Assembly: GCA_964616915.1 (NCBI GenBank)
Contig: CAZTSL010000002.1
Coordinates: 12,090 to 76,089 of the forward strand
Reading direction: 5' to 3'
Length of the DNA: 64,000 bases
Source of the DNA: an uncultured bacterium
GTDB lineage: Bacteria > Myxococcota_A > CAZTSL01
In this document: positions 2,181 through 58,733 of the stretch, one piece after another
Layout: each line of letters starts with the position of its first letter
How positions within the stretch are numbered: the first letter of the stretch is position 1
Made by a program: the position numbers and the translations under genes
Notes under the pieces: model-generated
What the model saw: the letters and a program-made list of their open reading frames with translations, nothing else
The model's database searches: none
Told to the model about the DNA's origin: nothing

Positions 2181-2194
2181 GGATCACGCGCCTC

Positions 2195-3307: not shown

Positions 3308-3379
3308 GGTCACTCCTTCGTCACACGTTTGAAAACTTGCTCCATCGTCTTCCATTCGGAACGAGGTTCCGGGTCGTTG

Positions 3380-4036: not shown

Positions 4037-4129
4037 GCTCGTTCGTCTCGTTTCCTTACCGTTCGAGGTCCCGTGGCTACACCACTCCCCTGAAGAGGTC
4101 CCATGCGTCCTGGAGTTTCCGGATCTGGC

Positions 4130-8259: not shown

Positions 8260-8882
8260 CCCCCCCGCTGCCGATCCGGGACGATCGAGATCGCCTGCGG
8301 ATAGCGGATACACGCCCGCTCGCACAGCCCACAACCGACACAGTAGGTGGGATCGAGGATCGGTTGTTCCATGAAGCCTGCGCGCAGCGCCTTCCCCTCG
8401 AAGGGACACGCCTTGACGCAGACCCCGCAGGAACTCCCCTGGTAGGAGTAACAGAGGTTCTCGTCGAGGGTGGAGACCCCCATCGAAACCTTCTCCTGGA
8501 TCGCCGCAGCGTCCTTTTCGACGGGAACGAGCGCGCCGGTGGGACAGGCCGCCGTACAGAGCAGCATCTTCCCCTGGTCCCCGCCGCAGAGGTTACAGGC
8601 TTGCAGGCGGGGGAAGATCACCGGGGTTCCGACCTCCGCCCGCCCCGGGGCCATGGAGAAGGGCCGCCCCGCTTCCCGGGTGAAGGGGCGGATCGCCTGG
8701 TTCGGACAGGCATCGCCACATTGGCCACAGCGGATACAACGGGCGAGGAATTCGTCCTCCGGGAGGGCCCCCGGCGGACGAAGCACGGCCCCCCCCGCTT
8801 CCGTGGGACGCAGGAAGCCGAAGCCCGCGGCCAGCGAGCCCGCCACCACCGTCACGTTCCGCAGGAAACCCCTGCGGCTCAT
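8256..8882 (-). CDS. NapG/MauM-type periplasmic 4Fe-4S ferredoxin with Tat signal (paralogue)
   Basis: MSRRGFLRNVTVVAGSLAAGFG (twin-arginine). CIRCGQCGDACP, CNLCGG...CTAACP, CGVCVKACP, CVGCGLCERAC. The start could be 8906. Confidence 0.75.
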   Translation of the reverse strand: MSRRGFLRNVTVVAGSLAAGFGFLRPTEAGGAVLRPPGALPEDEFLARCIRCGQCGDACPNQAIRPFTREAGRPFSMAPGRAEVGTPVIFPRLQACNLCGGDQGKMLLCTAACPTGALVPVEKDAAAIQEKVSMGVSTLDENLCYSYQGSSCGVCVKACPFEGKALRAGFMEQPILDPTYCVGCGLCERACIRYPQAISIVPDRQRGG

Positions 8883-8930
8883 CCGTCTGAACCAGGACGA
8901 TGCCATCCCCTCTGCTCCCCGGAACGCCGT

Positions 8931-11699
8931 TCAGATCTTCTCGATCCGGGCGGCGAGCTTCTTGTAGTCCGCCTGTCCCGACACCGGATCCCAGGCGCGG
9001 TGGCTCACCGCGTTGACGAGCCAGCGGTTCTTCTTCGGGTCGGCGCTGTCGGCCACCGAGAGGTTCCACGGGCTGAAGAGATAACCGGAGGGCACCTCGG
9101 AACGCGCCGGTTTGACGAGAGAATCGGTGCCGACCGAGACGCGGGCCTCGAAAGAGCCGCGCCGCGTCACCACCCGGACCTTTTCGCCATCCTCGAGACC
9201 GTAGCGCTCCGCGTCGTCCTCGTTGACCTCGACGTACTGCTCCGGCACGAGTTTGAGGGTCGTGGCCCCCCGGATCGTCTTCGAGGTGTGGAAGTGCTCG
9301 TAGACGATCCCGAGCCCGAGCCAGAAGGGATACTTGTTCTCCTTCTTCGCATCCTCGAGGCTCTTCGATTCGTCACGGAAGAAGTCGAGGTCGGGGAGTT
9401 CCGGAACGAGGGCGTTGTCCCGGGCGTGGACGAGGAGCGCGAGATGATCGATGAGGAAGGGCTGCTTCTCCGCCGCGGCCAGGATCTCCTTGTTCGAGGC
9501 CCCCTTGTGGACGAGTTCTCCGACGCTCTCCCCGAAGGTCATCAGCTTCGCACACGTCTCCTTCAGCGTGTCGTAGTTCTGCTCGCAGAGTTTGAAGTGC
9601 GCCTTTCCGTCCGGTTTGGGGAAGTTGCCGTACGGCTTGCCCGGCCAGTTCTCCTGTCCCATGTAGCGGCGCGCGACTCCTCCCTTCTTGGCGAGTTCGT
9701 AGGTCGGTGCGGGCCACTGGATGCCGCGCAGCCGGCGGAGCTGCTCGTAGGGGCTGATCCCATCCTTCTGCTCCACCTCGAGGATCCCGGTCAGGTCGGC
9801 GTCGGAGCCCTTGGAGGCCCGGATGATGTCGCGGAAGACCTCCTCCGGATCGTAGAACTTCTGGCCGTACTTGTTCGTGATCGTCTTCTTGTAGGGGAGG
9901 ATCTTATCGACGTCGAGGCCGAGCTTCCTGCCGATCGACCTGGCCTTGTCGATCGCAAGATCCATGTCGGGGCGGGCCTCCATGAGGACCTTCCCCTTGG
10001 CGTTGCGGCCAACCCCGACGCCGTCGTTGACGTAGAGCCGCCGTTCGCTCTGGATGTAGACACCGCCGCTCCATTCTCCCCATGTGATCGCCGGGAAGAC
10101 GACGTCGGCGTAGAGGAGGTTGGGGGCATGACGGTAGATGTCCTGGGCCACGGTGAAGGTCTTCATCATCGCGGGGCGAACGAGGGTCTGGACGTCGGGG
10201 AGATGGATGTGCGTCGTGTACATCCAGAACATCGCCTTGAGATCCCCTTTGAGGGCCCGTTCCATCATCCCGATCGCCATCGGGTTCTTCTGGCTCGCCG
10301 TGATGTTGAGCCGTCCCGCCGGCAGGCGCCAGCATTTGTTGATCCATCCGCGCCACTTCTCGTCGTTGAGCCCCTTGTTGAAGGGGAGACGGCCGGTCAA
10401 TCCTCCCATGAGGCGTTCGCTCATCGCGTTGGGCTGCCCCGTCTGGGAATGGGTGCCACAGCCGGGCCGCCCGATGTTTCCTGTCAGGAGGTGGAGGTTC
10501 ACGATCGAGATCGTGTTGTGCTGCCCGTGGAGCATCTGGTTGTAACCGATCCCCCAGAAGGTCAGCACGCCCCCCTTGCCCCGTTTTCGCCCCTTGATCG
10601 AGGCCTCGGCCCAGATCTTGGCGATCTTTTCGATCTGCTCGACGCTCACACGCCCCTGATCGATGATCTTGAGCCGCTCCACGACCTGTTGGGGCGAGTA
10701 GCGCGCCTTGATCCCCGCCACGTACTCCCGCCAGCCCGTCGTGTTCTCGTCGAGCCACTTCTCCGGCATCACGGCCTCGGGATACTTCGTGAGGATCACG
10801 TGCGCGATCGCGTTGAGGTAGGAGATGTCCCCGTTGATCGTCTGGAAATGGTACGAGTTGCGGGGGTTGACGTCCTCGAGGCCGGTGACGGTCCCGGTGC
10901 GCCGCGGGTCACTCACCAGCGTGGGAATATCCGTCTTCTTCTTGTGGTCCGCCACCCGCCAGAAGAGCACGGGGTGCGCCTCACGCGCATTGTGCCCCCA
11001 GAAGGTGATGAAGTCCGCCATCTCGATGTCGTCGTAGCTCGTGGGGGGGGTGTCGGAACCGAACGTCGCGAAATACCCCGTCACCGCCGAGGTCATGCAC
11101 ATCCGGGCGTTGGCCTCGATCGAGTTCGACGTGAGAATCCCCTTCATGAGGAGGTTCTCGATCCACTGGGCCTCCATCGTGAGCTGGCCCGAACCGCTCA
11201 GCCCCACGCTGTTGCCCCCGAACTTCTTCACGATCGCGGCGATCTTCTCCGCCACGATCTCTTCCGCCTCCTCGTAGCTCACCCGCCGGAAGACCGAATC
11301 GTCGAAACGCCCCTTGCTCTCGGAGACGTGTCCCGTCAACGGATCGGTCATGTCCTTCCGGACGAGGCAGTACTCGAGGCGATCCTGGTAGACCGGCTCG
11401 TTGGCGTTCAGCCCTTTGATGCACTGGATCCCCTTGTTCGTGGGGTGCGCCTTGTCGGGGACCATCCCTACGATCGTATCCCCCTCGACCTGGATCAGGG
11501 TCCCGCATCCCACCCCGCAATAGGGACACTGCGACTGAAGCTGCCGTCTCTTGGGTGTGGCCTTCCCCTCCGTCTCCGCCGCCATCACGAACTCGCCGGG
11601 GAAGAGCGACGAAACCCCTGCCGCCGCCGTCGTCACGCCGGAGATCTTCAGGAAATCCCGCCGCGATACCGGATGCTTCTCATCCTTCTTGCGTTTCAT
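8931..11699 (-). CDS. Tat-exported molybdopterin oxidoreductase catalytic subunit, NapA-like (periplasmic nitrate reductase-type), about 923 aa
   Basis: Start MKRKKDEKHPVSRRDFLKISGVTTAAAGVSSLF at 11699. N-terminal CPYCGVGCG ... NKGIQCIKG Fe-S motif, the NapA/Nas-type 'CIKG' signature. Length about 920 aa as in epsilonproteobacterial NapA. Followed by napG/napH-like genes. Confidence 0.8.
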   Translation of the reverse strand: MKRKKDEKHPVSRRDFLKISGVTTAAAGVSSLFPGEFVMAAETEGKATPKRRQLQSQCPYCGVGCGTLIQVEGDTIVGMVPDKAHPTNKGIQCIKGLNANEPVYQDRLEYCLVRKDMTDPLTGHVSESKGRFDDSVFRRVSYEEAEEIVAEKIAAIVKKFGGNSVGLSGSGQLTMEAQWIENLLMKGILTSNSIEANARMCMTSAVTGYFATFGSDTPPTSYDDIEMADFITFWGHNAREAHPVLFWRVADHKKKTDIPTLVSDPRRTGTVTGLEDVNPRNSYHFQTINGDISYLNAIAHVILTKYPEAVMPEKWLDENTTGWREYVAGIKARYSPQQVVERLKIIDQGRVSVEQIEKIAKIWAEASIKGRKRGKGGVLTFWGIGYNQMLHGQHNTISIVNLHLLTGNIGRPGCGTHSQTGQPNAMSERLMGGLTGRLPFNKGLNDEKWRGWINKCWRLPAGRLNITASQKNPMAIGMMERALKGDLKAMFWMYTTHIHLPDVQTLVRPAMMKTFTVAQDIYRHAPNLLYADVVFPAITWGEWSGGVYIQSERRLYVNDGVGVGRNAKGKVLMEARPDMDLAIDKARSIGRKLGLDVDKILPYKKTITNKYGQKFYDPEEVFRDIIRASKGSDADLTGILEVEQKDGISPYEQLRRLRGIQWPAPTYELAKKGGVARRYMGQENWPGKPYGNFPKPDGKAHFKLCEQNYDTLKETCAKLMTFGESVGELVHKGASNKEILAAAEKQPFLIDHLALLVHARDNALVPELPDLDFFRDESKSLEDAKKENKYPFWLGLGIVYEHFHTSKTIRGATTLKLVPEQYVEVNEDDAERYGLEDGEKVRVVTRRGSFEARVSVGTDSLVKPARSEVPSGYLFSPWNLSVADSADPKKNRWLVNAVSHRAWDPVSGQADYKKLAARIEKI

Positions 11700-11840
11700 C
11701 CATCTGCCTCCCAACAAAGAAGATCCACGGAAAGCCTGGCTCTTTGGACGCGGCTTGGAAAGCAAAATGAATACCACGCCCACGAGAAAAATCCTCCCTC
11801 TCCCAGAAAAAAGGACTGAATGGTATTTTTTCAGGATCGA

Positions 11841-11885
11841 GATCAGGATGGGGAGGGACCAACGTGAACCATCCCAACCTGATCC
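11841..11885. promoter_or_regulatory. Imperfect 12-13 bp inverted repeat (GATCAGGaTGGGg / cCCCAaCCTGATC) with 20-nt spacer in the AT-richer promoter region of the nap-like operon
   Basis: Read directly at 11841-11853 and 11873-11885. About 140 bp upstream of the NapA-like start, in the 300-bp intergenic region. Confidence 0.3.
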
Positions 11886-12001
11886 TCCCCCGAACCTGTT
11901 TCTTTTCACACAGAATTTTGCGGGATTTCACACAAAAGGAGAGGGGAGGATCGCCTGGTGGCACGATACACCCACACGAAGGGGGGAGGAGGGGACGACG
12001 A

Positions 12002-18804: not shown

Positions 18805-21800
18805 ATGCGCTCCTGTGTTCGAAGGAACGACATGGACTCCCAGGCTCGATCTCTTGTGAACCCGACCTCCCCGAATTCCGGCAAGGATCCGATCGCGATC
18901 GTGGCAGTCGCGGCGGTCTCCCCGATCGGCAACGGCGCCGAGACGTTCTGGCGCAATACGTGCGGCAAGGCCGACGGGATCATCGAGGTGCCCCGGTCGC
19001 GCTGGAACCACGATCTCTACTACGACCCGGACCGCAAGGCCCCGAACAAGACCTATAGCAGGCTCGGTGGATTCGTCCTCGACGACGGCTTCGACCGCCG
19101 GGACCTCGGCGTCAATCCGATGGACGCCAGGGCGATGGATATCGTGATCCGGATGGCCCTGGCCGCGGCCTACGAACTCTTCTCGCAAAGCGGTTACCTG
19201 AAACGGGACTTCGACCGCTCGCGCTGCGCGGTGATCCTGGGCAACGCCAAGGGCGGGGTCGGCGTCCGGGACAACACGATCCGACAGGTCTACTTCCACG
19301 CGGCCTACGATGCGCTGCGCAGGAACGAACACTTCCGCAGACTCGCCCCCGATCTCCAGGAGGCGATCCTCGGCACCTGGCCGAAGGAGGCCCTGGCAGG
19401 GTGTACGCCGGTCCATGACGGATCGATGACCGGATGGCTCGGGAACGTCGTGGCAGGGCAGATCGCTCGCTATCTCGACCTCTCCGGTCCCAGCTTCACG
19501 ACCCATGCGGCCTGCGCGAGCGCGGTGGCCGCGCTCGCCTGCGCGGTCGATGGCTTGCAACGGGGAGAATTCGACCTGGCCGTGAGTGGAGGCGCATCGA
19601 GCTGCATGTCCCCCGCGGTCTTCGTGGAGTTCTCGAAGATCAACGCGCTCTCCCCCGACGGCAGCCGCCCCTTCGACGTGACGCGAAACGGCTTCGTGAT
19701 GGCCGAGGGGGCAGCCCTCCTCCTCCTCAAGCGCTATCACGACGCCGTGCGGGACGGCGACCGGATCATCGCGGTGATCCGGGGGATCGGAGCGGCAAGC
19801 GACGGGCGGAGCAAATCCCCGACCGCCCCCAGGGAGACGGGCCAGATTCTGGCGATCCGCCGGGCCCTCCAAGCCGCGGGGTGCGAACGCTCCGGCATCG
19901 GCCTCGTCGAGGCGCATGGCACCGCCACCCCCGTAGGGGATCGCACCGAGGTTCGCTCCCTCCAGAGGGTCCTCGGCCACCCCGCAAGCGACCTGCCGAT
20001 CCACCTCACCTCCGGCAAATCGCAGATCGGGCACACCCTCGGCGCGGCCGGCGCCTTCGGCGTGCTGCGGGCCGCCCTGGCGATCGAGACGGGCACGATC
20101 CCCCCTTCGATCCATTGCGAACGCCCCGATCCGGTGATCACCCCACCCTTCCAGGTCGCAACCGAACCGATCCCCTGGAAGGGGAAGGGTCCACGACGGG
20201 CGCTCGTCAACTCGTTTGGCTTCGGCGGTACCGATTTCTCGGTCGTCCTCGAAGAACCGGGCCCCTCTGGAACGCACGTGACGGTACGCGCAGATCTCCA
20301 GCAAAGCAAAGGAAACGATTCCACCCCCGCACCCGAGAGAGGATCCACGATGAACGCGGCGTTGCGCCCCCATGGAAGTCGTCTCGCTTTTCTCTTCCCC
20401 GGTCAGGGCTCCCAGTACGTGGGAATGGGCAAACCCCTCTACGACCGCTACGCCATCGTGCGGGAGACCTTCGAGGAAGCGGACGACGTGCTCCACAAAC
20501 CCCTCACGAAGCTGATCTTCGAGGGACCGGAGGAGGACCTCAAGGATACGAAGAACCTGCAACCCGCGCTCATCACGATCAGCGTGGCCTATTTCCGCCT
20601 CCTGGCCTCGCTGGGCATCCGTCCCGACCTGGTGGCGGGACACAGCCTCGGGGAATACGCCGCACTCGTGGCCGCCGAGGTCCTCGATTTCGCCGACATC
20701 CTCAAGATCGTGGCGCTGCGGGGAGAGTTCATGTCCCTGGCGCCGGGGAAGATGGCCGCGATCATGGCCGAAGAAGAGAAGATCGTCGCGGTGATCGAGA
20801 CGATCCCCGAAGTCTGGATCGCCAACCGGAACTCTCCGCGACAGTTCGTGATCTCCGGCTCCGTGGCGGGGATCGATCTTGCTTGCAAGAAACTGCGGGA
20901 GGCGGGGGTCAAACGGGTCTATCCCCTCCCCGTCTCCGCGCCGTTTCACTGCCCCCTCCAGCAGGGATTCTCCGACCGCTTCGCCGAGATCCTGGAAGGC
21001 TACGATTTCCGCCCCCCCACGATTCCGATCCTGACGAACGTCACAGGGGGCTTCCACAGCAACGACCCCGCCGAGATCCGCCGCCGGATGGTCGAGCAGT
21101 GCTACAGCTCCGTGAACTGGGTCGCCAACATGGAGACCGTCGAGGCCTTCGGCGTCCGCACCGTGGTCGAAACGGGTCCGGGCATCGTGCTCTGCGGCCT
21201 GGGCAACGTCATCTGGGATGGACGCATCGAAACGCTCGCCTTCCAGGACAACAAGCGCAACATCATCTTCGATGAACTCGTCGAAAAGCTTCAATGGGCC
21301 GTTGATCCTGGGATGCGCCACCCCGAGACGGATACCTCGGGGAAGGGGGTGACGCCGGGCCCGAAACCGGCGCGCGCGATCGAAACCACCCATACCGCGG
21401 AAGCGCCGCAGCGAAAAACCCCCACGGAGGGGGGGAGAAGGGAGAATGGCGGAATGGAGGAACGCAACGAACGATTCGTCTCACATCTCCTCGAGGACGA
21501 TACCCTCGAGCTGGCGAATGATTTCGCATTCTCCGCCTTCGCCCGCAGGCACCGGGAGATGATCAACGGGATGATCCGTCACCTCTACGAGACGGAACGA
21601 GCCTCCCGGCCGCAGGTCGTCGTGACCGGCGTCAACCTCGGTCTTCCCGGAAAAGCCCGCGCGGTCTTCGGCGAGGAGAACTGGAAGAGACTCGTCCAGG
21701 GAGAAAACCGTATCGATCCCCTCGATGAGGAGACGCAGCGGCGCATCCTCGAGAAGAACATCATCCGGACGCTCAAGAGCCCTACCGGTGGACTCCCGGT

Positions 21801-24800
21801 CGATGTCCCGGTCCGCAAGCTCTCCGAGGTGATCCACCTCGCCGGACAGCTCGGCGAGTTCGACCTGCGCAAGGACTACGGCATCGAGGAGCGTCTCGAC
21901 GAGACGCTCGACATCTCCTTCCGCCTCTCGCTCGCCTCGACGATCGAGGCGCTGCGCGATGCCTGCATCCCCCTGATCCCCCATTACGAGACGCTTGCGA
22001 ACGGGAAGCGCCGCTTCACGAAGTTCGCGCTTCCCCCCGAGATCGGAGACCGGACCTCGGTCTGGTTCGGCTGCGCCTTCCCCGGCCTGGAAAACATCCT
22101 CGACGAGGTCTCGAAGATGCTCGCCTGGCGTTTCACCTCCCTCAACCAGGGTGTCTTCGAGGAACTCGAACGGATCTACGGCGAACTCCTCGACGTCGTC
22201 GAAGATCCGGCCCATCGTTCGCAACTCTACCGGTGGTACGCGGAGGCTTTCTCGAAGCTCCGTGCCCATACCCCCAAGGAAGCGCCGGTCTATCGGTTCA
22301 ACCGCAAATTTCTCTTCCGGATCCTCGGGAGCATGGGGGCCTCCCAGATCGCCCAGTTCATCGGTGCAAGAGGGCTTGCGATCCAGTCGAACAACGCCTG
22401 CGCATCGACCGCGATCGCCAAGAGCCTCGGCGCGATGCTGATCCGGCAGGGGGAAGCCGATTGCGTGATCGTCACCGGCTCCGACGCCGTGACCGCCAGA
22501 CAGAGCATCGAGTACATCGGGGCCGGATTCCTCGCCTCCGGGGCGGCCACCACGGAGAAGATCGTGGAACGTGCGGCGAAACCCTTCGACCGGGATCGCA
22601 ACGGCATGATCCTCGGCGCCGGCGTGGGCACGGTGATCCTCGAGAAGGAATCCCTCCCCGAACGCCGGGGGGTCGTCCCCAAAGCGCTCTTCATCGCCGG
22701 GAAGATGGCCAACAGCGCCTTCCATGCCACCCGTCTCCACCCCCAGCACATCGCAGAGGTGATGCAGGATCTCTTCCGCGATCTCGAGCGTGACTACGGG
22801 ATCACTCCGCAGGAGATCGCCAGGGAGACGGTCTTCGTCTCGCACGAGACCTACACCCCGGCGCGAGGGGGGAGCGCCCAGGCGGAGATCCGCGCCCTGC
22901 GGGAGACCTTCGGCCCGGCGGCCAACCAGGTCCTCATCACGAACACGAAGGGTTTCACCGGCCATGCAATGGGCGCCGGGATCGAGGACGCCGCCTCCGT
23001 CGAGATCCTCGACACGGGTGAGGTCCCCCCCGTGGCCAACCTCGAAAATCCCGACCCCGAACTGGGAGACCTCCGGCTGAGCCGCGGCGAAAAGGCCGAT
23101 CCGAAATATGCCCTGCGCCTGGCCGCCGGCTTCGGCTCCCAGATCTGCATCACCTTCGAGGCCGCGGTTCCCGGTCCGAGCGGCCTGCGCGACGAAGCCC
23201 GACACGCGCGTTTCCTCGCCGAAGTCACCGGGATCGAACACCCCGAGACCGAGATCGTCCACCGGACCTACCGGGTGAAACTCCCCCCCAAGGACCAGGC
23301 CGTCCTCGAACGGATGCAACGCGCGCGCGCCAAGGAGAAACCCGTCACACCCGCTGCGGCTACGCCGGGGAAGCCCACCGCCACCCCTACGAGAGAATCG
23401 AGGGGAACGCCACCCGCCGCAAGCCCCACGACGACCACGGCCGGCAAGCCCGCCACCCCCACGCTCACGGAAACGGCCTCCCCCCTCTCCGCCAGCGATA
23501 TCACCGAGCGGGTTCTCGAAGAGGTCTGCGCGTTCACGGGGTATGAGCGCGACGAGGTCGATCCGAAGGCCCACATCGAGGACGATCTGGGGATCGACTC
23601 CAACAAGGCCCCCGAACTCATCGACTTCATCGAAGAGAAACTCGGCGTCGAGATCCCCAACGAGGTGGCCAGCCGCATCGAGACGATCGAGCAGATCGTC
23701 GAAGCCGTCTCCCAGAGGGGCAGCATCCCCACCCCACAGCCGACGCCGGACGCCGCCAAGGGGCATGCAGAGCCCCTCTCTCCGATTTCTTCTCCCCCCG
23801 CCCCCGATTCCGCTCCCAAGGGAGATCTCGTCTCCCGCGTGATCGAGGCGGTCTGCGCGTTCACGGGGTATGAGCGCGACGAGGTCGATCCGAAGGCCCA
23901 CATCGAGGACGATCTGGGGATCGACTCCAACAAGGCCCCCGAACTCATCGACTTCATCGAAGAGAAACTCGGCGTCGAGATCCCCAACGAGGTGGCCAGC
24001 CGCATCGAGACGATCGAACAGATCGTCGAAGCCGTCGCAAAGAACGGCAACCTTCCGGGCGCCTTCCGCCACCTCTTGCCCGCAGAGAAAGAAACCCCCA
24101 CAGAGACGCGTGCCCCGAACAGCGAAGCGGCCTCGATCGCCGAACGCGTGATCGAGGCGGTCTGCGCGTTCACGGGGTATGAGCGCGACGAGGTCGATCC
24201 GAAGGCCCACATCGAGGACGATCTGGGGATCGACTCCAACAAGGCCCCCGAACTCATCGACTTCATCGAAGAGCAACTCGGCGTCGAGATCCCCAATGAA
24301 GCAGCCAGCGCGATCCAGACCATCGAGGAGATCGTCGAGACGATCGAATCGGGACGAGAGAAGCGTGAACCGGCACCCCCGGCTGCCAGGGCAGGGGATG
24401 AAAGCGCTCCTCCCCAGGCGCCCCCCTCTCCGCCCTCCGGCGACAGGGGAACCCTCGAGGCCGCTCAGACCCCCCCCCCCACAGCGGAGGCGTCGTACGG
24501 CGAGATCCTCGAGGCAGTGATCCGGCATGTCTGCGCGTTCACGGGGTATGAGCGCGACGAGGTCGATCCGAAGGCCCACATCGAGGACGATCTGGGGATC
24601 GACTCCAACAAGGCCCCCGAACTCATCGATTACATCGAAGCGCAAATGGGCGTCGAGATCTCCAACGAAGAGGCGACCGAACTCGAACGAATCGAAGAGA
24701 TCGCCCGGATCGTCTTCGAGAAACGGAGCGCTTCCCCTCGCGTGGATCAGAGCCAGCCAGCCGCCTCACCCCCCGCCGAGACGACACACGAAGCCCGGCT

Positions 24801-27800
24801 CGAGCGGCGGATCGTGACCTGGCAGGAAATCGAGGGGGAGGGATCCGACGCCGCGTTCAGACAGATTTCCGATCTCCCGATCGCCCTGGTCGGCGCCCTT
24901 TCGGCGCTCACCCCCTTCCTCGAAGAAGCGCACGTCATCCCCTTCGACTTCGAGCAGCCGGACGAAGCATGGCGGGAGCGGGTCGCCGCAACCGGTCCCT
25001 TCGCTGGGCTCTGCTACCTCCACGGCGCTTCGGCCCAAAGGGTTCACACGGAGCACCTGGCCCGGCTCGCCACCCTGATCGCGGAACTTCCGATGCGCAA
25101 AGGCGCCTTCCTCCTGGCCCTTACCCCGGAACAGAGGAACGACGATCCCGAATTCGAGGCGGTCTGCGGCCTTTTCGCCTCGATCCAGCACGAACGATCG
25201 GAGGCGGTCGTCGTGCGGATCGCCTCCGGCATCTCCCTCGACGATCCCCTTCGCACCGTCGCCGAGCGTGTCCTCCGGGCACCGGGAGGGATGGAGATCC
25301 GTTTCTCGCAGGATCGCATCCTCACCCCGATCGTAACCAGCGCACCGCCCCTCGGTCCATGCCTCGATCTCACCCCCAGCGACACGGTCCTCCTCACCGG
25401 CGGTGCCCGCGGGATCACGGCCGGGATCTCGAAGGAGATCGCCCGGCGTCATCACTGCCGGATCGCGCTGATCGGAAGGACGCCGTTGCCGCAGGATCTC
25501 CCCGAGCATCTCCACGATCTCCATCCCCGGATGTCGCAGGAGGAATTGCGAGCCAAGATCCGGGAGCGGCTGAAAGAGCGTGGGGCTTCCGTGCGTCCCA
25601 CCGATGTGGCCCGGGAGATCGAACGGATGCGCGCCAGTCACGAGGCGGCCGAGAATATCGGCGCGATCTCGGAAGCAGGGGCAGAGGTCGTCTACTTCCC
25701 CTGTGACATCACGGATCGAAACGCCCTTGCCCGCACGATCGAGGAGATCGACGCGCGCTTCGGGCGAATCACCGGCATCGTTCACGGGGCGGGGATCAAA
25801 TGGGATGCTCCCCTCGAGAAGCTCACCCCCCGGCACTGGGAAGCCGTCTTTGCGCCCAAGGTCGGCGCGGTCGAAAGCCTGAGCGCCCTGATCGATCCCG
25901 ATTCCCTCCGCTTCTTCGTGGTCCTCTCCTCGATCGCCGCCCTCTACGGCAACGCCACGCAGGGGAACTACGCGGCGGCCAACCGCGCGGTCGTGGCCCT
26001 GATGCGAAACCTCCACGAAGCGCACGGTGTGCTCGCCAAGGCGATCTACTGCCCACCGATCAGCGGGGTGGGGATGGCCGCCGACCCCGGAATCCTCCGT
26101 CACCTGGCACAGCTCGGGATCGACTACGGCACACCCGAAGCGTTGGCCGCCTTCGTGGCCGAGGAGATCGCCGTCGCCGATCCCGAGGTCGCGGTCGCCT
26201 GGCATGGGCGGGTCGGCGCGCTGGCCCGTTACTTCGCGCAAGCCCCTTCAGGGGGGGATCCCGGCCGCTCCGGAGGGGGAAACGGCACCCGCCAGCCAAC
26301 GCCCCTCTCCCCGGCGGAAGGGAGTGATTCCTTCTTCGACCGCGTCCTCGAACACCAACCCAACGAGCGGATCGTGCTCGAAAAGACGTTCGACGTCGAA
26401 CGGGACATCACCCTCCTCGACCATGCGATCGAGGGAACACCGGTCGTTCCCGCCATCCGCGGAATCGAGGTCTTCCTCGCGGCCGCCTCGCGGCTCTTTC
26501 CCGGCAAACGGATCGAATCGCTCAAGGATCTGCGCTTCCTCAAGTGGCTCAAGCTCGAAGGGGGGAAACCCCTCACCGTCCGGGTGAAGGCGGAGGGGAC
26601 GCCCGAGGCGTGCAAGGTCTATATCGAACAGGAGATTCGCTCCCCCCGGGGCGCGCAGCCGGGGAGCTACCGGATCCACTTCTCCGGAACGGTCGTTTTC
26701 GCCGATCAGACGAGCGCCGCTTCAGGGCTCTTCTCCCTCGAGGGGCTTGAGGAGGCCGGGGTGTCTCCCAAGGAAATCTACCGTCCCGACCGTTTCTTCC
26801 ACGGCCCCGAGTTCCAGGTCCTCGGGGGAGTGAGCCGGTGGGGGATCGAGGGGGCGGAGGGAGAATACGCCCCACCGAAAACGATTCCGGGAGGCAATCA
26901 CCTTCCCCGTGGGATCCACCCCGAACACTTCCTCGTCCTCGAGGCACTCGAACAGCTCGCCGGGATCTTCGATATGCGCTTCCATGGAACCTTCGCGCTG
27001 CCGGCGGCATTCTCCCAGCTTCGCTTCATCGCCGCGCCGGTGGGTCCGATCCGGCTTCGCGTCATGGAAGTCGGCGGGGGGGCCAAGGAGCGCCGCTTCG
27101 ACCTCCTCGCCCTCGATCGTGCCAACCGGCCCGTGGTGAGCGCACGCGGTTTCACCCTCAAGGTGATCCGAACCCTTGTTCCCTCCGCCCGATTCCCCGA
27201 GGATACGCCGCCTGTCCCCCCCGTGCCGGGAAGCTCGAGCATGATCAACTCCCCCCTCCCCGGTGATGGGGGGAATACGCAGATGGCCATCGCCGAGGTA
27301 CCCCTCGATCGGCTCGAAGCCGCGATCCGCGAAAATCCAGCCCTGATCGAGGCATTCCTCGGAGAGGAAGAGATGGAGGCACTCCTGGCGATGCGCCACC
27401 GCCGCCGCCGCCTGGAGCGAATCGGAGGCACGATCGCCGCAAAGAAGGCCTTCCTGCGCTATTGCGCCAGGATCGAAGGGAGAACGCCTGCGCTCACTTC
27501 CCTCACCCTGCGGCATCGCAAGAGCGGAAAGCCCTATCTTTGCGTGGATGGCGACCCATACCCCGTGGCCCTCTCGATCGCCCACTCCGGCAAGCGGGCC
27601 GTCGCGCTCGTCGGAAGAAAAACCGCCGGCATCGACCTCGTCGATCTCTCCTCCTTCGGCTCCGAGGCGTTCAAGCGACGGGTCTATACGCTGCGCGAAC
27701 GGATCCTGGCCAGCTCGATCGCCAAGGCGGCGGAGATCGAGCACTTCTTCCAGGCCGGCGCGCCCCACCAGCTCACTTCCCCCCTGCCTGAGAGCGCCCT

Positions 27801-28026
27801 CATCGATGAGGATACGGCCCTCGCCCAGATCTGGGCGGCCAAGGAGTCGTTCGTGAAAGCGCTCGGCACCGGGTTCCGGGGACTCGACTTCCGGCAGATC
27901 GAGGTCAAGGAGATCCGGCCCGACGGCCGTGTCCTCCTCGATTTCCACCGCAACACCCTCCCCCCCTATCTCACCCGCGTCACGAAGAAGGAAGGCTACG
28001 TCCAGGCCACGACCCTCTTCGGATGA
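18805..28026 (+). CDS. PUFA-synthase-like iterative type I PKS/FAS megasynthase: KS - AT - second KS-like domain - 4 tandem ACP - KR - FabA-like DH - C-terminal Sfp-type phosphopantetheinyl transferase (3073 aa)
   Basis: KS1: TTHAACASAV, EAHGTATPVGD, KSQIGHTLGAAG. AT: GQGSQYVGMG, GHSLGEYAAL. KS2-like: QSNNACASTAIA, TNTKGFTGHAMGAG. Four ACPs: DLGIDSNKAPELI repeated four times. KR: LLTGGARGITAGISK. DH: LLDHAIEGTPVVPAI. PPTase: GIDLVDL and KESFVKALGTG. Confidence 0.9.
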   Translation: MRSCVRRNDMDSQARSLVNPTSPNSGKDPIAIVAVAAVSPIGNGAETFWRNTCGKADGIIEVPRSRWNHDLYYDPDRKAPNKTYSRLGGFVLDDGFDRRDLGVNPMDARAMDIVIRMALAAAYELFSQSGYLKRDFDRSRCAVILGNAKGGVGVRDNTIRQVYFHAAYDALRRNEHFRRLAPDLQEAILGTWPKEALAGCTPVHDGSMTGWLGNVVAGQIARYLDLSGPSFTTHAACASAVAALACAVDGLQRGEFDLAVSGGASSCMSPAVFVEFSKINALSPDGSRPFDVTRNGFVMAEGAALLLLKRYHDAVRDGDRIIAVIRGIGAASDGRSKSPTAPRETGQILAIRRALQAAGCERSGIGLVEAHGTATPVGDRTEVRSLQRVLGHPASDLPIHLTSGKSQIGHTLGAAGAFGVLRAALAIETGTIPPSIHCERPDPVITPPFQVATEPIPWKGKGPRRALVNSFGFGGTDFSVVLEEPGPSGTHVTVRADLQQSKGNDSTPAPERGSTMNAALRPHGSRLAFLFPGQGSQYVGMGKPLYDRYAIVRETFEEADDVLHKPLTKLIFEGPEEDLKDTKNLQPALITISVAYFRLLASLGIRPDLVAGHSLGEYAALVAAEVLDFADILKIVALRGEFMSLAPGKMAAIMAEEEKIVAVIETIPEVWIANRNSPRQFVISGSVAGIDLACKKLREAGVKRVYPLPVSAPFHCPLQQGFSDRFAEILEGYDFRPPTIPILTNVTGGFHSNDPAEIRRRMVEQCYSSVNWVANMETVEAFGVRTVVETGPGIVLCGLGNVIWDGRIETLAFQDNKRNIIFDELVEKLQWAVDPGMRHPETDTSGKGVTPGPKPARAIETTHTAEAPQRKTPTEGGRRENGGMEERNERFVSHLLEDDTLELANDFAFSAFARRHREMINGMIRHLYETERASRPQVVVTGVNLGLPGKARAVFGEENWKRLVQGENRIDPLDEETQRRILEKNIIRTLKSPTGGLPVDVPVRKLSEVIHLAGQLGEFDLRKDYGIEERLDETLDISFRLSLASTIEALRDACIPLIPHYETLANGKRRFTKFALPPEIGDRTSVWFGCAFPGLENILDEVSKMLAWRFTSLNQGVFEELERIYGELLDVVEDPAHRSQLYRWYAEAFSKLRAHTPKEAPVYRFNRKFLFRILGSMGASQIAQFIGARGLAIQSNNACASTAIAKSLGAMLIRQGEADCVIVTGSDAVTARQSIEYIGAGFLASGAATTEKIVERAAKPFDRDRNGMILGAGVGTVILEKESLPERRGVVPKALFIAGKMANSAFHATRLHPQHIAEVMQDLFRDLERDYGITPQEIARETVFVSHETYTPARGGSAQAEIRALRETFGPAANQVLITNTKGFTGHAMGAGIEDAASVEILDTGEVPPVANLENPDPELGDLRLSRGEKADPKYALRLAAGFGSQICITFEAAVPGPSGLRDEARHARFLAEVTGIEHPETEIVHRTYRVKLPPKDQAVLERMQRARAKEKPVTPAAATPGKPTATPTRESRGTPPAASPTTTTAGKPATPTLTETASPLSASDITERVLEEVCAFTGYERDEVDPKAHIEDDLGIDSNKAPELIDFIEEKLGVEIPNEVASRIETIEQIVEAVSQRGSIPTPQPTPDAAKGHAEPLSPISSPPAPDSAPKGDLVSRVIEAVCAFTGYERDEVDPKAHIEDDLGIDSNKAPELIDFIEEKLGVEIPNEVASRIETIEQIVEAVAKNGNLPGAFRHLLPAEKETPTETRAPNSEAASIAERVIEAVCAFTGYERDEVDPKAHIEDDLGIDSNKAPELIDFIEEQLGVEIPNEAASAIQTIEEIVETIESGREKREPAPPAARAGDESAPPQAPPSPPSGDRGTLEAAQTPPPTAEASYGEILEAVIRHVCAFTGYERDEVDPKAHIEDDLGIDSNKAPELIDYIEAQMGVEISNEEATELERIEEIARIVFEKRSASPRVDQSQPAASPPAETTHEARLERRIVTWQEIEGEGSDAAFRQISDLPIALVGALSALTPFLEEAHVIPFDFEQPDEAWRERVAATGPFAGLCYLHGASAQRVHTEHLARLATLIAELPMRKGAFLLALTPEQRNDDPEFEAVCGLFASIQHERSEAVVVRIASGISLDDPLRTVAERVLRAPGGMEIRFSQDRILTPIVTSAPPLGPCLDLTPSDTVLLTGGARGITAGISKEIARRHHCRIALIGRTPLPQDLPEHLHDLHPRMSQEELRAKIRERLKERGASVRPTDVAREIERMRASHEAAENIGAISEAGAEVVYFPCDITDRNALARTIEEIDARFGRITGIVHGAGIKWDAPLEKLTPRHWEAVFAPKVGAVESLSALIDPDSLRFFVVLSSIAALYGNATQGNYAAANRAVVALMRNLHEAHGVLAKAIYCPPISGVGMAADPGILRHLAQLGIDYGTPEALAAFVAEEIAVADPEVAVAWHGRVGALARYFAQAPSGGDPGRSGGGNGTRQPTPLSPAEGSDSFFDRVLEHQPNERIVLEKTFDVERDITLLDHAIEGTPVVPAIRGIEVFLAAASRLFPGKRIESLKDLRFLKWLKLEGGKPLTVRVKAEGTPEACKVYIEQEIRSPRGAQPGSYRIHFSGTVVFADQTSAASGLFSLEGLEEAGVSPKEIYRPDRFFHGPEFQVLGGVSRWGIEGAEGEYAPPKTIPGGNHLPRGIHPEHFLVLEALEQLAGIFDMRFHGTFALPAAFSQLRFIAAPVGPIRLRVMEVGGGAKERRFDLLALDRANRPVVSARGFTLKVIRTLVPSARFPEDTPPVPPVPGSSSMINSPLPGDGGNTQMAIAEVPLDRLEAAIRENPALIEAFLGEEEMEALLAMRHRRRRLERIGGTIAAKKAFLRYCARIEGRTPALTSLTLRHRKSGKPYLCVDGDPYPVALSIAHSGKRAVALVGRKTAGIDLVDLSSFGSEAFKRRVYTLRERILASSIAKAAEIEHFFQAGAPHQLTSPLPESALIDEDTALAQIWAAKESFVKALGTGFRGLDFRQIEVKEIRPDGRVLLDFHRNTLPPYLTRVTKKEGYVQATTLFG
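23500..24720 (+). repeat. Four tandem about 310-360 bp direct repeats, near-identical at nucleotide level, encoding the ACP domains of the megasynthase
   Basis: Repeat unit gtctgcgcgttcacggggtatgagcgcgacgaggtcgatccgaaggcccacatcgaggacgatctggggatcgactccaacaaggcc... seen starting near 23524, 23851, 24160 and 24531. The repeats also appear as repeated peptides in the antisense ORFs. Confidence 0.9.
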
Positions 28027-33564: not shown

Positions 33565-34476
33565 TCACGAAGCCGAAGGGGAGCGGTCCCGCGCATGGGG
33601 GAGGACCTCCCGTTCATACCGCTCGACGCGTTCGAGGACACGGGCACGCGTCGCGATCCCGGAGACACCCGCAGCGCAGACGGCGAAGGACGCCGCGCAT
33701 GTGGCAAAGATCGCCGCTTCCCTGGTATTCCTCCCCTCGGCGAAGGCCACGAGGAAGGCCGCCATGAAGACATCCCCTGCGCCGGTCGGATCGATCGCCT
33801 CGACGGGGAAGGCCGGCAGGTCGATACACGATTCACCCGAGATCACGCGGACCCCTCTGGCACCGCGCGTGAGGAGGAGGATCGGAACCTCTCCGGCGAG
33901 TTCTTCCACGATCTCCGGAAAGGGTGCCACATCCTCCTCCGAGAGGGAGAGGACCGAGATCCGGTCGCGCCAGGCCGATGGGATCCCTTCCCACGCCACG
34001 GCTTCGACACGCCCCCCGCCGGGAGGCCATCGCCGCATGAACCCCTGCGGGGAGAGCCCGATCAATCCCTGGGGGAAGGCTTCGATCACCTCGAGATCGA
34101 CCTCCCGGGCGATCGGGGCGAGATGGACGATCCGGCTCTCCCGTACCGCCTCGGGAAGCGCCGAGACGATCTCCTTCGAGAGGGGGGCGGCCCATGCGTG
34201 AAGCCATTGGGCCCGGCGTCCCGAAACGGGGTCGTAGCGGTTCTCGAAGGTCGTCGTTGCCGGGGCGGGGTGAACGAAGAGATCCACCCCCGCTCCCTCC
34301 AAGAGGGCACGGAAAGCGAAATCCGGCCCGACACGCGTCACGACCGTCACATCTCCTTCGGAAAGGAGCGCGCGCGCCGCAAGTGCAGCGTAGAGCGCCG
34401 CGCCGCCGGGATGGATCCCCTCCGGCACACGGTCGTGACAGAGATGACCGATCGTAAGAAACGCGGGGGGCCTCAA
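33565..34476 (-). CDS. PfkB-family carbohydrate/nucleoside kinase (ribokinase-like)
   Basis: DPTGAGDVFMAAFL (PfkB signature 2), 303 aa. Confidence 0.75.
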   Translation of the reverse strand: MRPPAFLTIGHLCHDRVPEGIHPGGAALYAALAARALLSEGDVTVVTRVGPDFAFRALLEGAGVDLFVHPAPATTTFENRYDPVSGRRAQWLHAWAAPLSKEIVSALPEAVRESRIVHLAPIAREVDLEVIEAFPQGLIGLSPQGFMRRWPPGGGRVEAVAWEGIPSAWRDRISVLSLSEEDVAPFPEIVEELAGEVPILLLTRGARGVRVISGESCIDLPAFPVEAIDPTGAGDVFMAAFLVAFAEGRNTREAAIFATCAASFAVCAAGVSGIATRARVLERVERYEREVLPHARDRSPSAS

Positions 34477-35777
34477 AGCGTTCCCACCATGGAGCGTGTG
34501 GCATGAAACTCGTGGAAGCGACGCTCGATCCGATCCGCGAGGGCGGCGGTCGTCCGATAGCGCACCCGAACCCCCTCTTCCTCGAACGCCTCTTCCAGGA
34601 TCCGGGCCATCTCCCGGATCTCCCGTACGAACCCTTGCTCCTCGTAGCGCAGCCGCAACGAACGATCGACCATCCCCCGCTCGAAGAAGGTGAAGATCTG
34701 GCGCTCGAGCGTTTCGATCCCCTCCCCCGTCTCGCCGGAGACGCAGATCCCGTCGGGGAAACGGCGGCGCAAGAGGTTGAAGAGCGCCGGATCCGTCACC
34801 CGATCGATCTTGTTGAAGACGTGGAGACGTGGGGTTCCCTGCAAGCCGAGATCGCTCAGGATCCGATCGGTCGTGGCGATCTGCTGCGCAAAGGCGGGGT
34901 GGGAGAGATCGACGACGTGAAGGAGGAGGTCCGCCTCCGCCACCTCCTCGAGCGTGCTCTTGAAGGAGGCCACCAGGTGCGGGGGGAGCTTCTTGATGAA
35001 GCCGACGGTATCGATGAGCAAGACGGGGGGGCGAAGTTCGTTGGGCAGGCGACTCACCTTGGCATCGAGCGTGGCAAAGAGCCGGTCCGCGACCAGGACT
35101 TCGGAATCGGTCAAGGCGCGCAGGAGCGTCGATTTCCCCGCATTCGTGTAGCCTACGAGGGCTACGGTGAAGCAGTTGCGCCGTCTCTTGCGCCGCGTCT
35201 CACGGCGGGCGCGGATCACCGCCAGTTCCCGCTCCAGTTTCTGGATCCGTTCCCGCACGATTCGCCGGTCGAGTTCGATCTGCGATTCTCCGGCTTCCCG
35301 AAGACCGATCCCCCCCCGTTGCCGGTGCAGGTGGCCCCAGCGCCGGGCCAGCCGGGGAAGGAGGTAGGAGAGGCGGGCGATCTCCACCTGGATCGCCGCT
35401 TCCTTCGTGCGGGCGTTACGCGCGAAGATCTCGAGGATCAACTCGGTGCGGTCGAGGATCCGTCGCTCGATGACCCGCTCCAGGTTTCGGGCCTGAGCCG
35501 GGGAGAGATCGTCGTCGAAAATCACCGTATCGGCATCGAGCGCCCTGGCCTGCGCTGCGATCTCCCGAACTTTCCCCTCCCCCACGAAGTAGGTCGCATC
35601 GATCGCCTCCCGCCGTTGGGTGATCCGACCGACCGTCGTGATCTGTGCGGTCTGTGCCAGCCGGGAGAGTTCATCGAGGGCCTCCGTGAGTTCGTCCGCG
35701 CCTTGCGCGGGATGGCGTACCCCCACCAGGAGAGCTTTCTCGGATGTTTCTTTCTGAAGCGTATCGCGATTTCTCAA
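34473..35777 (-). CDS. hflX: GTPase HflX
   Basis: HflX N-domain, G-domain motifs GYTNAGKST (G1), DTVGF (G3) and NKID (G4). 4-nt overlap with the pfkB-like gene. Confidence 0.85.
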   Translation of the reverse strand: MRNRDTLQKETSEKALLVGVRHPAQGADELTEALDELSRLAQTAQITTVGRITQRREAIDATYFVGEGKVREIAAQARALDADTVIFDDDLSPAQARNLERVIERRILDRTELILEIFARNARTKEAAIQVEIARLSYLLPRLARRWGHLHRQRGGIGLREAGESQIELDRRIVRERIQKLERELAVIRARRETRRKRRRNCFTVALVGYTNAGKSTLLRALTDSEVLVADRLFATLDAKVSRLPNELRPPVLLIDTVGFIKKLPPHLVASFKSTLEEVAEADLLLHVVDLSHPAFAQQIATTDRILSDLGLQGTPRLHVFNKIDRVTDPALFNLLRRRFPDGICVSGETGEGIETLERQIFTFFERGMVDRSLRLRYEEQGFVREIREMARILEEAFEEEGVRVRYRTTAALADRIERRFHEFHATRSMVGTL

Positions 35778-36339: not shown

Positions 36340-38049
36340 ATGTCTGAACTGATCCAGCCGCACGGTGGCGAACTCAAGGAACTTTGCGTCCGGGGACCGG
36401 AACTCGAAGCACTCAAGAAGGAAGCGCTCGAGTTGCCTTCGATCACGCTGACGGAGCGGCAGCTCTGTGATATCGAACTCCTCCTCAACGGCGGCTTCTC
36501 CCCCCTCACAGGATTCATGAACCGGGAGACCTACGAGCGCGTCGTCTCGGAGATGCGATTGCCCGACGGAACGCTCTGGCCGATGCCGATCACGCTCGAC
36601 CTGCCGGCGGAGCGGGCGGAGACCCTCTCGAAGGGGGACCGGGTGGCACTCCGTGAGCCGGAGGGGATGCTCCTTGCGGTGATGACGGTGGACGAGGTCT
36701 GGGAACCGGACAAGACGCGCGAAGCCCAGCTCGTCTTCGGGACCGAGGACGATACGCACCCCGCGGTCGATTACCTGATGCACACGGCGGGGAGCCACTA
36801 CGTGGGAGGAACACTCCAGGGCGTGCAGCTCCCCCACCACTACGACTTCCTGCGGCTGCGGCACACGCCGGCGGAACTGCGCGAGCATTTCCGGAAGCTG
36901 GGGTGGCGCAGGGTCGTGGCCTTCCAGACGCGCAACCCGATGCACCGCGCCCACAAGGAGCTGACCGTCCGTGCCGCCAAGGAGGTGGAGGCCAACCTTC
37001 TCATTCACCCCGTGGTCGGGATGACGAAGCCGGGGGATGTCGATCATTTCACGCGGGTGCGCTGTTACGAGAAGATCATGCCGAAGTATCCGCACGGAAC
37101 CGCGATGTTGAGCCTTCTCCCCCTGGCGATGCGGATGGCCGGCCCGCGAGAGGCGCTCTGGCATGCGATCATCCGCAAGAACTACGGATGCACCCACTTC
37201 ATCGTCGGACGCGACCATGCTGGCCCCGGCAACGACAGGAACGGAAAACCCTTCTACGGGCCCTACGACGCGCAGGAGATGGTCGCCCGCTACGCCGACG
37301 AACTCGGTGTCCAGATGGTCCCCTTCAAGCTGATGGTCTACGTGGAGGACCGTGCGGAGTACATGCCGATCGATGAGGTACCGCCGGAGAGCCGGACCCT
37401 GACGATCTCCGGCACGGAGCTGCGCCGCCGCCTCAACGAAGGGCTCGATATTCCGGAGTGGTTCACCTATCCCGAGGTCGTCGAGGAGCTGCACGTCTCG
37501 CATCCGCCGCGCAGCAAGCAGGGCTTCACCGTCTTCTTCACCGGCCTCTCCGGCTCCGGGAAATCGACGATCGCCAACGCCCTCATGGTCGCCTTCCTCG
37601 AGGAGGGACGCCGTCCCGTGACCCTCCTCGACGGGGACATCGTGCGCACGAATCTTTCGAGTGAACTCGGCTTCTCCAAGGAGCACCGTGACCTCAACAT
37701 CCGCCGGATCGCCTTCGTGGCCAGCGAGATCACGAAGAACCACGGGATCGCGATCTGCGCCCCGATCGCGCCCTACGCCGAGGCCCGCCGCTACGCCCGC
37801 AAGCTGATCGAGCAGTACGGCGGCTTCATCGAGGTTCACATCTCGACCGATATCTCCGTGTGCGAACAGCGGGATCGCAAGGGGCTCTACGCCAAGGCGC
37901 GTCAGGGTCTCATCAAGGGGTTCACCGGCATCGATGACCCCTATGAGGTTCCGGAGAATCCGGAACTCCGCATCGATACCGCCGAGGTGAGCGTCACCGA
38001 GGCGGTCCAGCGGATCCTCCTCCACCTCGAGAAGGAAGGCTACATCTGA
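36340..38049 (+). CDS. sat: Bifunctional sulfate adenylyltransferase (ATP sulfurylase) / adenylylsulfate (APS) kinase
   Basis: N-terminal ATP-sulfurylase domain ([21 protein letters not shown]) fused to APS kinase ([18 protein letters not shown]-loop). RBS aaaggagaaaagATG. Confidence 0.9.
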
Positions 38050-43618: not shown

Positions 43619-43742
43619 AAGGCAATGGGGGCAATGGAGAGAGCCACCATGCAAGACGCACCGGGGAGAGCCAACGAACGAGATCTCCATCGCAACGCGG
43701 GGAGCATCCTTTTCCCACGGCAGCCATCAGGAGGAATACGCC

Positions 43743-46925: not shown

Positions 46926-46963
46926 GGACGGCCAGCAGGGCGCCATGGCCCATCGAGTCTGGA

Positions 46964-58713: not shown

Positions 58714-58733
58714 TCGGGAAGATCCCCCCCACG

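Follow-up and report, generated by a model that had tools for sequence, protein, structure and literature searches.

A 64,000-nt stretch of DNA from an uncultured bacterium (contig CAZTSL010000002.1, positions 12,090 to 76,089; hereafter, the window) carries on its forward strand a 9.2-kb megasynthase gene at 18805-28026, and the present analysis concerns the enzyme encoded by this gene and the family to which it belongs. The frame runs without interruption for 3,073 residues plus stop, and its GC content at third codon positions (GC3, 0.82) and codon-position GC in general are like those of genuine genes (window GC, 65%). Pfam and NCBIfam profile searches of the translation resolved the protein into a first ketosynthase (KS1), a malonyl-CoA:acyl carrier protein transacylase (MAT), a second ketosynthase (KS2), four acyl carrier proteins (ACPs) in tandem, one ketoreductase (KR), a dehydratase (DH), and a phosphopantetheinyl transferase (PPTase), in that order. 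A preliminary description of this DNA had given the order as KS-AT-KS-ACP4-KR-DH (AT, acyltransferase), which was correct, and the motifs it cited lie at the expected residues (NNACAS at 1196, GHAMGAG at 1386, GIDLVDL at 2942, and KESFVKALG at 3013). No identical copy of the megasynthase protein is on record in public assemblies.

KS1 (residues 28-490; 18886-20274) was recognized by the N- and C-terminal Pfam ketoacyl-synt models and is a KS of type I polyketide synthase (PKS) or PfaA type. It matches positions 8-467 of the NCBIfam PfaA model, and its best matches in PDB are KS domains of type I PKSs (CurL, DEBS). The KS1 catalytic set, Cys237, His371, Lys405, and His410, is invariant in 121/121 members of an alignment comprising the megasynthase and its 120 best homologues. 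The transacylase (residues 526-805; 20380-21219; Pfam Acyl_transf_1) is FabD-like, scoring 282 bits against TIGR00128 (fabD) and thereby exceeding the cut-off of 261; its Ser614, within GHSLG, and Arg639 are invariant in the family alignment. The KR together with its structural subdomain occupies residues ~1990-2470 (24772-26214; Pfam KR and adh_short), the catalytic part being 2194-2405 with Ser2376, Tyr2389, and Asn2393, of which the Ser and Tyr are unchanged in all 121 members. A PKS-type, double-hotdog DH follows (residues 2515-2800; 26347-27204; Pfam PKS_DH_N and PS-DH), and its His2540 (HxxxGxxxxP) and Glu2713-x3-Gln2717 are invariant in 120/120 members. At the position of the LDD stereochemistry motif of the KR (residues 2332-2334; 25795-25803), the megasynthase reads K-W-D whereas the family reads E-R/E-S, with Ser in 116 of the 121 members. 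Judged by this motif, the stereochemistry of ketoreduction may differ from that of its relatives, motif-based typing being uncertain for the family.

KS2 (residues ~932-1480; 21598-23244) proved to be FabF-like by alignment, profile, and structural model. In the NCBIfam ranking fabF came first and the PfaA model gave no match. Alignment places residues Cys1199, His1347, Lys1382, and His1387 at the catalytic positions of FabF, and the set is invariant in 121/121 members, as is the motif F-x-S-H-E-T-Y-T-P-A in which His1347 sits. An AlphaFold2 (AF2) model of residues 925-1490 (566 residues; predicted local distance difference test score, pLDDT, 86.6; predicted TM-score, pTM, 0.87) was compared to PDB using Foldseek, and the best 50 matches were all FabF, KasA, or mitochondrial ketoacyl-ACP synthase (KAS), onto which the model superposes over their whole length with target TM-scores of 0.80-0.88. 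In fold and complete catalytic residues KS2 thus resembles FabF/KAS II. Unlike FabF, it lies inside a megasynthase, is only 20-22% identical in sequence, reads the family-specific HETYTP instead of HGTGTP, and bears a ~60-residue helical hairpin insert (residues ~1095-1153; 22087-22263). Since FabF has ~410 residues and the KS2 model 566, the hairpin stretch is extra; it consists of two long helices (H171-207 and H211-229 in model numbering), is found in the megasynthase and most members, and is missing from 13 members with a fused PPTase. A chain-length factor (CLF) is marked by loss of the active-site Cys, and Cys1199 is present. The preliminary description had reasoned from the retained Cys and His that the second KS is not a CLF, a view strengthened by the Lys and second His and by the FabF-like fold. 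As judged from alignment and model, KS2 is a complete FabF-type condensing enzyme and no CLF.

Pfam PP-binding, hidden Markov model searches, and repeats in the DNA itself delimited the four ACPs: ACP1 (residues 1559-1640; 23479-23724), with Ser1599 in GIDSNKA; ACP2 (1668-1749; 23806-24051), with Ser1708; ACP3 (1771-1852; 24115-24360), with Ser1811; and ACP4 (1894-1975; 24484-24729), with Ser1934. [quoted passage not shown] The units correspond to four 221-nt DNA copies that are 79-94% identical, with perfect identity between any two of them over a run of 101 nt or more and the identical codon used at 85-94% of identical residues between copies. In addition, no homologue ACP exceeds 38% identity to these units. 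Taken together, repeat identity, common runs, codon identity, and distance from homologues provide good support for concerted evolution or recent duplication of the array. The preliminary description had spoken of recombining tandem ACPs; four tandem ACPs with homogenized repeats are indeed present, whereas recombination can only be inferred from them. A word-based search for the origin of the ACPs gave no candidate, and HMMER over 1.84 billion representatives, with a ranking driven by summed tandem repeats, gave matches no more than ~43% identical. From these comparisons the origin of the ACPs is untraceable, without a close relative in the databases searched.

Sfp-type (group II) PPTases are two-lobed pseudo-dimers of ~230 residues in which each lobe is AcpS-like, and their catalytic motifs are G-x-D-x-E and W/F-x-x-K-E-x-x-x-K. 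The C-terminal domain of the megasynthase (residues 2832-3073; 27298-28023) has an ACPS-superfamily match in Pfam at 2942-3068 (52 bits), and each half of residues 2830-3073 is AcpS-like. Foldseek with an AF2 model of the domain (pLDDT 90.8) returned full-length matches to human AASDHPPT, Sfp, PcpS, and PptT, while AcpS covered one lobe only. With AcpS-like halves and full-length structural matches, the PPTase proposed earlier is a true Sfp-type domain. Its residues of note are Asp2944, Val2946, Asp2947, Lys3013, Glu3014, and Lys3018. The W-x-x-K-E-x-x-x-K motif is intact (WAAKESFVK), and P1a-like SGKP and P1b'-like LSIAH motifs are present. The other motif has the form G-[IVT]-D-[LI]-E in 28/28 fused homologues that were aligned, but G-I-D-L-V-D in the megasynthase, whose DNA at Val2946-Asp2947 (gtc gat) differs from a Glu codon by more than a single point mutation.

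To find possible partners, the rest of the 64-kb window was searched by tblastn with seeds for a second PPTase, enoyl reductase (ER), acyl-CoA dehydrogenase (ACAD), electron transfer flavoprotein (ETF), acetyl-CoA carboxylase (ACC), and GNAT acetyltransferase, all of which were negative, and Pfam scans of the other plausible window open reading frames (ORFs) revealed neither PKS genes nor other lipid partners. The lack of pfaB, pfaC, pfaD, and ER partners noted in the preliminary description holds over the 18.8 kb upstream and 36 kb downstream of the gene, and the same 64 kb contain no thioesterase (TE). Enoyl reduction and chain release are encoded neither in the protein nor elsewhere in the window. 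A hidden ER or TE domain was ruled out, since residues 830-930, 1490-1560, and 2800-2832 are low-complexity linkers and the stretch 1990-2190 is the KR structural subdomain. The earlier term "self-contained" goes too far, as the protein has neither an ER nor a release domain and its PPTase lacks the Glu of the Mg-binding G-x-D-x-E motif.

Synthases of this build have been catalogued before. Shulse and Allen (2011; PLoS One 6:e20146) defined a Type R secondary lipid synthase as one pfaA homologue with the order KS-MAT-CLF-ACP(3-6)-KR followed by a PPTase gene, its product uncharacterized. They reported it in Koribacter versatilis, Solibacter usitatus, Elusimicrobium minutum, and Roseiflexus spp., i.e., in the phyla Acidobacteria, Elusimicrobia, and Chloroflexi, described an ACC gene between the synthase and PPTase genes of Koribacter, and assigned a P1a plus P1b' combination of PPTase motifs to Types M-T (Shulse and Allen, 2011). 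In our comparisons the order KS1-AT-KS2-ACPn-KR-DH was common to all 120 best homologues (2600-3800 aa, about 30-47% identical to the megasynthase; sources include Elusimicrobia, Thermoplasmatota archaea, Spirochaetota, Persicimonas, and others) and to 80 genome loci. A genome scan using KS2-specific motifs found the family in at least 593 species-level genomes, including Acidobacteriota (Bryobacteraceae, Korobacteraceae, and Sulfotelmatobacter), Myxococcota, Actinomycetota, Chloroflexota, Verrucomicrobiota, Dormibacterota, Binatia, Elusimicrobia, and Thermoplasmatota archaea; KS2 identity to the megasynthase was at most 57% among the scan matches listed. The second KS and the fused PPTase had both been called atypical, but KS2 is present in every one of the homologues and genome loci just mentioned, and the PPTase is fused in 50/200 family sequences, or about a quarter. 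In fact, the seemingly odd features are the norm in an already catalogued family. Because KS2 keeps its Cys-His-Lys-His set, the "CLF" label is wrong across the family.

The megasynthase shares with Type R a single pfaA-like gene encoding KS-MAT-second KS-ACP(3-6)-KR, here in the form KS1-MAT-KS2-ACPx4-KR(-DH), and a dedicated PPTase with P1a/P1b' motifs. Its relatives are associated with ACC, and the same phyla recur among its homologues, which come from Elusimicrobia, Bryobacteraceae, Korobacteraceae, and Chloroflexia. Unlike Type R, its PPTase is a C-terminal fusion rather than a downstream gene (the separate-gene form occurs in L005 and many other loci), it has no ACC, ACAD, or ETF nearby, and its ACPs are AcpP-like with Ser. 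In a KS2 neighbor-joining tree of 200 members, the megasynthase lies inside the family and the fused-PPTase sequences form four clades; it branches deepest within one of these, a clade of 19 members composed of Myxococcota and "Proteobacteria" metagenome-assembled genomes (MAGs). A GNAT acetyltransferase is usually found directly downstream of the synthase in this clade (L006, L007, L042, L062, L077, and L086). One clade member, P0018 (L086, 6786-20444), has two aromatic amino-acid ammonia-lyase genes directly upstream in addition to a GNAT gene directly downstream, a context that could point to a chain with an aryl primer and to N-acyl off-loading there. A GNAT remnant 3' of the megasynthase gene, as in the sister loci, was ruled out, as tblastn was negative and the ZnuA gene there is genuine. 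Another clade member, P0094, is a lone synthase among two-component genes, like the megasynthase. The latter is a variant of the family in which the PPTase is fused, the ACPs are AcpP-like and of the Ser type, and partner genes are lacking.

The residue at the phosphopantetheine position sets the megasynthase apart from its family. Thr was found there in 429/441 ACP units of the homologue protein set, in 204/210 units of the genome loci, and in 32/34 further members from a representative library, so that in an attachment motif of the form (E)ADLGIDT(V/I)KQ Thr replaces Ser in ~97% of units. In an alignment of one family Thr-ACP with the PigH and Streptomyces coelicolor ACPs, the Thr falls exactly on the DS serine. 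The Thr-type motif ADLGIDTVKQAE was recorded among homologues P0001-P0120 and loci L006-L085, and for example in L003 (10001-19294) and L005 (10001-18802). In the family a dedicated PPTase, adjoining or fused, accompanies the synthase in every case in which enough downstream sequence is available to reveal it. Rare Ser variants occur among the relatives (ACP1 of L062, P0251, and P0337). We found no mention of Thr-ACPs in the literature searched, and phosphopantetheine on threonine would be carrier-protein chemistry for which we know of no precedent. The megasynthase deviates both at the carrier site and at the PPTase metal motif, and this may reflect replacement of the ACP array with co-adaptation of the PPTase, or relaxed selection on the PPTase.

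Gene neighborhoods were examined at 85 family loci, 71 of them with a separate or unseen PPTase and 14 with a fused one. A canonical operon emerged, consisting of ETF-beta, ETF-alpha, a Bcd-like ACAD, the synthase, a carboxylase, and the PPTase (e.g., L017, 2258-20872; L018, 2748-20891; and L049, 4614-20466), in which stop/start codon overlaps are frequent, as in L017. The dehydrogenase is 550-740 aa long, in some cases with N- and C-terminal extensions, and lies directly upstream of the synthase in 53 of the 71 non-fused loci; ETF genes occur at 18-20 family loci; and the carboxylase of the canonical operon is a single chain of ~1850 aa with biotin carboxylase, biotin carboxyl carrier protein (BCCP), and carboxyltransferase parts. 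In keeping with a demand for malonyl-CoA, a carboxylase adjoins the synthase in 50 of the 85 loci. Since the closest solved relatives of the dehydrogenase are reductive Bcd (of the Bcd/EtfAB complex) and the caffeyl-CoA reductase CarC, its kinship suggests a role in the enoyl reduction that the synthase lacks, and dehydrogenase and ETF together may be the enoyl reductase of the pathway. No report linking ACAD/ETF to the family was found in the literature searched. P0088 (L004, 3658-15066) is the one member with a fused PfaD-type ER: its N-terminal region of ~620 residues matches the PfaD/nitronate monooxygenase-type model PF03060, and its ACPs lie between AT and KS2 rather than after KS2. In Thermoplasmatota MAGs (L003, 8178-23063, and L054) we observed a cassette of carboxyltransferase, synthase with fused PPTase, BioY, biotin carboxylase, BCCP, and enoyl-CoA hydratase, which, if the contigs are correctly binned, would amount to a complete ACP-dependent acyl-chain module in archaea. 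The canonical operon, Thr at ~97% of ACP sites, and the megasynthase as an outlier go beyond the account of Shulse and Allen (2011).

We consider the megasynthase to be a Type R member and an iterative type I FAS/PKS-like enzyme (probability roughly 0.7), with its tandem carriers holding a single long acyl chain as this is assembled from malonyl-CoA. In the proposed mechanism, Ser1599, Ser1708, Ser1811, and Ser1934 would be converted to the holo form by the Sfp-type C-terminal domain or by a housekeeping PPTase, and the FabD-like transacylase would load malonyl units onto the four ACPs. Condensation would be carried out by the PKS-type KS1 and the hairpin-bearing FabF-type KS2, both predicted to be catalytically complete, which probably divide the condensations by chain length or stage, like KS-A and KS-C of polyunsaturated fatty acid (PUFA) synthases. 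KR and DH would take the beta-keto intermediate to the enoyl stage in each cycle, where cycles would end unless a trans-acting reductase intervenes, and an unlinked enzyme would release the chain. By analogy with most of the family, we tentatively favor, at somewhat short of even odds, a lipid-type long acyl chain with enoyl reduction in trans as the product; a trans-reduced chain is the parsimonious choice given the ACAD/ETF or PfaD-type ER of the family and the FabF-type KS2.

Several observations weigh against this view of the enzyme and its product. ACAD, ETF, ER, ACC, GNAT, and TE are all absent from the 64 kb, and the trans-acting ER is therefore something that we can only infer. Among the 14 fused-PPTase loci, just one has an ACAD, which is short and on the opposite strand. 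We found no biochemical data for any family member in the literature searched. The link to the Type R reference proteins of Koribacter, Solibacter, Elusimicrobium, and Roseiflexus is drawn from architecture, taxa, and gene order, on which grounds membership of the megasynthase in Type R is likely. Moreover, Val2946 occupies the position of the Mg-ligand Glu, with Asp2947 adjoining, and is unique among the 29 aligned PPTases. The preliminary description expected the enzyme to prime its own ACPs, and the Sfp-type fold and canonical Ser sites agree with this, but the Mg-ligand Glu has been replaced; self-priming is thus plausible but not assured, and could be impaired.

The absence of enoyl reduction raises the possibility that the megasynthase is an ER-less polyene synthase. 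Enediyne PKSs (PKSE; SgcE, CalE8, and DynE8) have the order KS-AT-ACP-KR-DH-PPTase, with a C-terminal PPTase that self-primes, and the C-terminal KR-DH-PPTase order of the megasynthase is the same. In Rhodococcus, RerA (KS-AT-ACP2-KR-DH) together with the PPTase-containing RerB has been reported to yield polyenes with 6 to 9 conjugated double bonds as well as ACP-bound polyenoyl chains up to C22. Like these enzymes, the megasynthase has an iterative KS-AT-ACP-KR-DH set without an ER, with tandem ACPs as in RerA and a C-terminal PPTase as in PKSE; with KS, AT, ACP, KR, and DH only, and no ER in cis or in the window, one double bond would be left per cycle. The product would then be a polyene or hydroxy-polyene with conjugated double bonds, perhaps a pigment, and a trans ER would play no part. 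The fused-PPTase loci lack the ACAD/ETF genes, which fits this idea, and the ammonia-lyases upstream of P0018 recall the logic of aryl-polyenes and flexirubins. However, PKSE and RerA have one KS and need a partner TE, whereas the megasynthase has two KSs, an invariant FabF-type KS2 among them, and no TE was seen; PKSE has a single ACP and an enediyne cassette, compared to four ACPs and no cassette in the window. Furthermore, the same core is mostly paired with a Bcd-type reductase in the family and in one member with a PfaD-type ER, and enediyne PKSs were absent from the best 60 of 185 PDB matches to KS1-AT and from 25 of 134 matched NCBIfam families. We regard an unreduced polyene or hydroxy-polyene as the main alternative product, somewhat less likely than the trans-reduced chain, with a smaller share of probability left for something else.

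A closer tie to PUFA synthesis, in which a conventional PUFA synthase has the megasynthase as its PfaA subunit (or the megasynthase is an HglE-type glycolipid synthase) and the pfaB/C/D or hglC/D partners lie outside the window, draws on the PfaA model TIGR02813 as the top NCBIfam model for the protein and on the KS-AT...KR-DH order with tandem ACPs. The PKS-type KS, malonyl transferase, tandem ACPs, KR, and PKS-type DH do occur in the same relative order in PfaA, the iterative logic and concerted ACP evolution are alike, and the broad PfaA kinship proposed in the preliminary description holds to that extent. Yet the score is 672 bits, below the cut-off of 1010, and PfaA has no KS2, a FabF-like domain that here stands between AT and the ACPs, and no fused PPTase. 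In addition, nothing related lies in the 18.8 kb upstream or 36 kb downstream, and no pfaB, pfaC, or free-standing pfaD adjoins the gene in the 85 family loci. The suggested heterocyst-glycolipid or alkylresorcinol product finds no support in the context, the window being devoid of type III PKS, glycosyltransferase, and hglC/D-type genes. We regard the conventional-subunit explanation as very improbable. Slightly better, but still improbable, is that the gene is a decaying copy, i.e., a pseudogene in the making that has lost its ACAD/ETF, ACC, and GNAT partners and whose PPTase is crippled by the Glu-to-Val change. The gene does stand alone, its PPTase motif is deviant and without parallel among the aligned sequences, and its ACPs are highly divergent. 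Decay is unlikely, however, because the 9.2-kb frame, with its strong coding GC3, and all other catalytic residues checked in KS1, AT, KS2, KR, and DH are intact. The ACP repeats have been kept homogeneous with Ser in all, a housekeeping AcpS could prime such AcpP-like Ser-ACPs, and P0094 of the same clade likewise stands alone.

We found no characterization of a Type R product in the later literature searched, and according to a 2026 paper the secondary lipids identified so far number no more than a handful. Since everything bar enoyl reduction and release is encoded in one gene, the megasynthase offers a single-gene handle on this family, and with its conventional Ser-ACPs standard hosts should be able to prime it. 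It could conceivably represent an orphan lipid synthase family in its minimal natural form, a lone polypeptide with two active KSs and ordinary Ser-ACPs, although we think this rather unlikely; if true, expression of this enzyme alone could reveal the product of a family that extends to archaea. If the family does load Thr via its dedicated PPTases, the megasynthase would also be a natural Ser-type control. The FabF-type second KS, the Bcd/ETF-type operon reductase, and the carrier-site Thr, if confirmed, would be of interest to FAS and PKS enzymologists.

The immediate flanks of the megasynthase gene agree with the preliminary description: a family-5 substrate-binding protein gene and a histidine kinase gene lie upstream on the minus strand, and ZnuA and DUF885 genes lie downstream. 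A scan for promoters and terminators near the gene gave nothing exceeding shuffled expectation. Elsewhere in the window, positions 1-11909 (minus strand) hold a respiratory-type cluster with two molybdopterin oxidoreductases, one of them carrying a twin-arginine translocation (TAT) signal, several poly-ferredoxin proteins, and a multihaem c-type cytochrome. A fused ATP sulfurylase/adenosine phosphosulfate (APS) kinase gene is found at 36340-38049 and a nickel superoxide dismutase gene at 39926-40399. Four big consecutive genes occupy 41072-52290 on the plus strand and encode proteins of 848 aa (with a vWA domain), 1217 aa (Tubulin_2, PF13809), 828 aa (without assignment), and 947 aa (with a weak novel-STAND NTPase match). 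The stretch 58710-64000 on the plus strand is taken up by a very large ORF, 1763 aa or more in length, that carries PD40 beta-propeller and TPR repeats and continues past the window end. Finally, HflX (34473-35777, minus strand) is the only window protein with an identical public copy, with 100% identity to a protein on a 3.3-kb contig of a MAG labelled "Deltaproteobacteria bacterium"; its next best match is 51% identical, which marks the host lineage as deep and poorly sampled.

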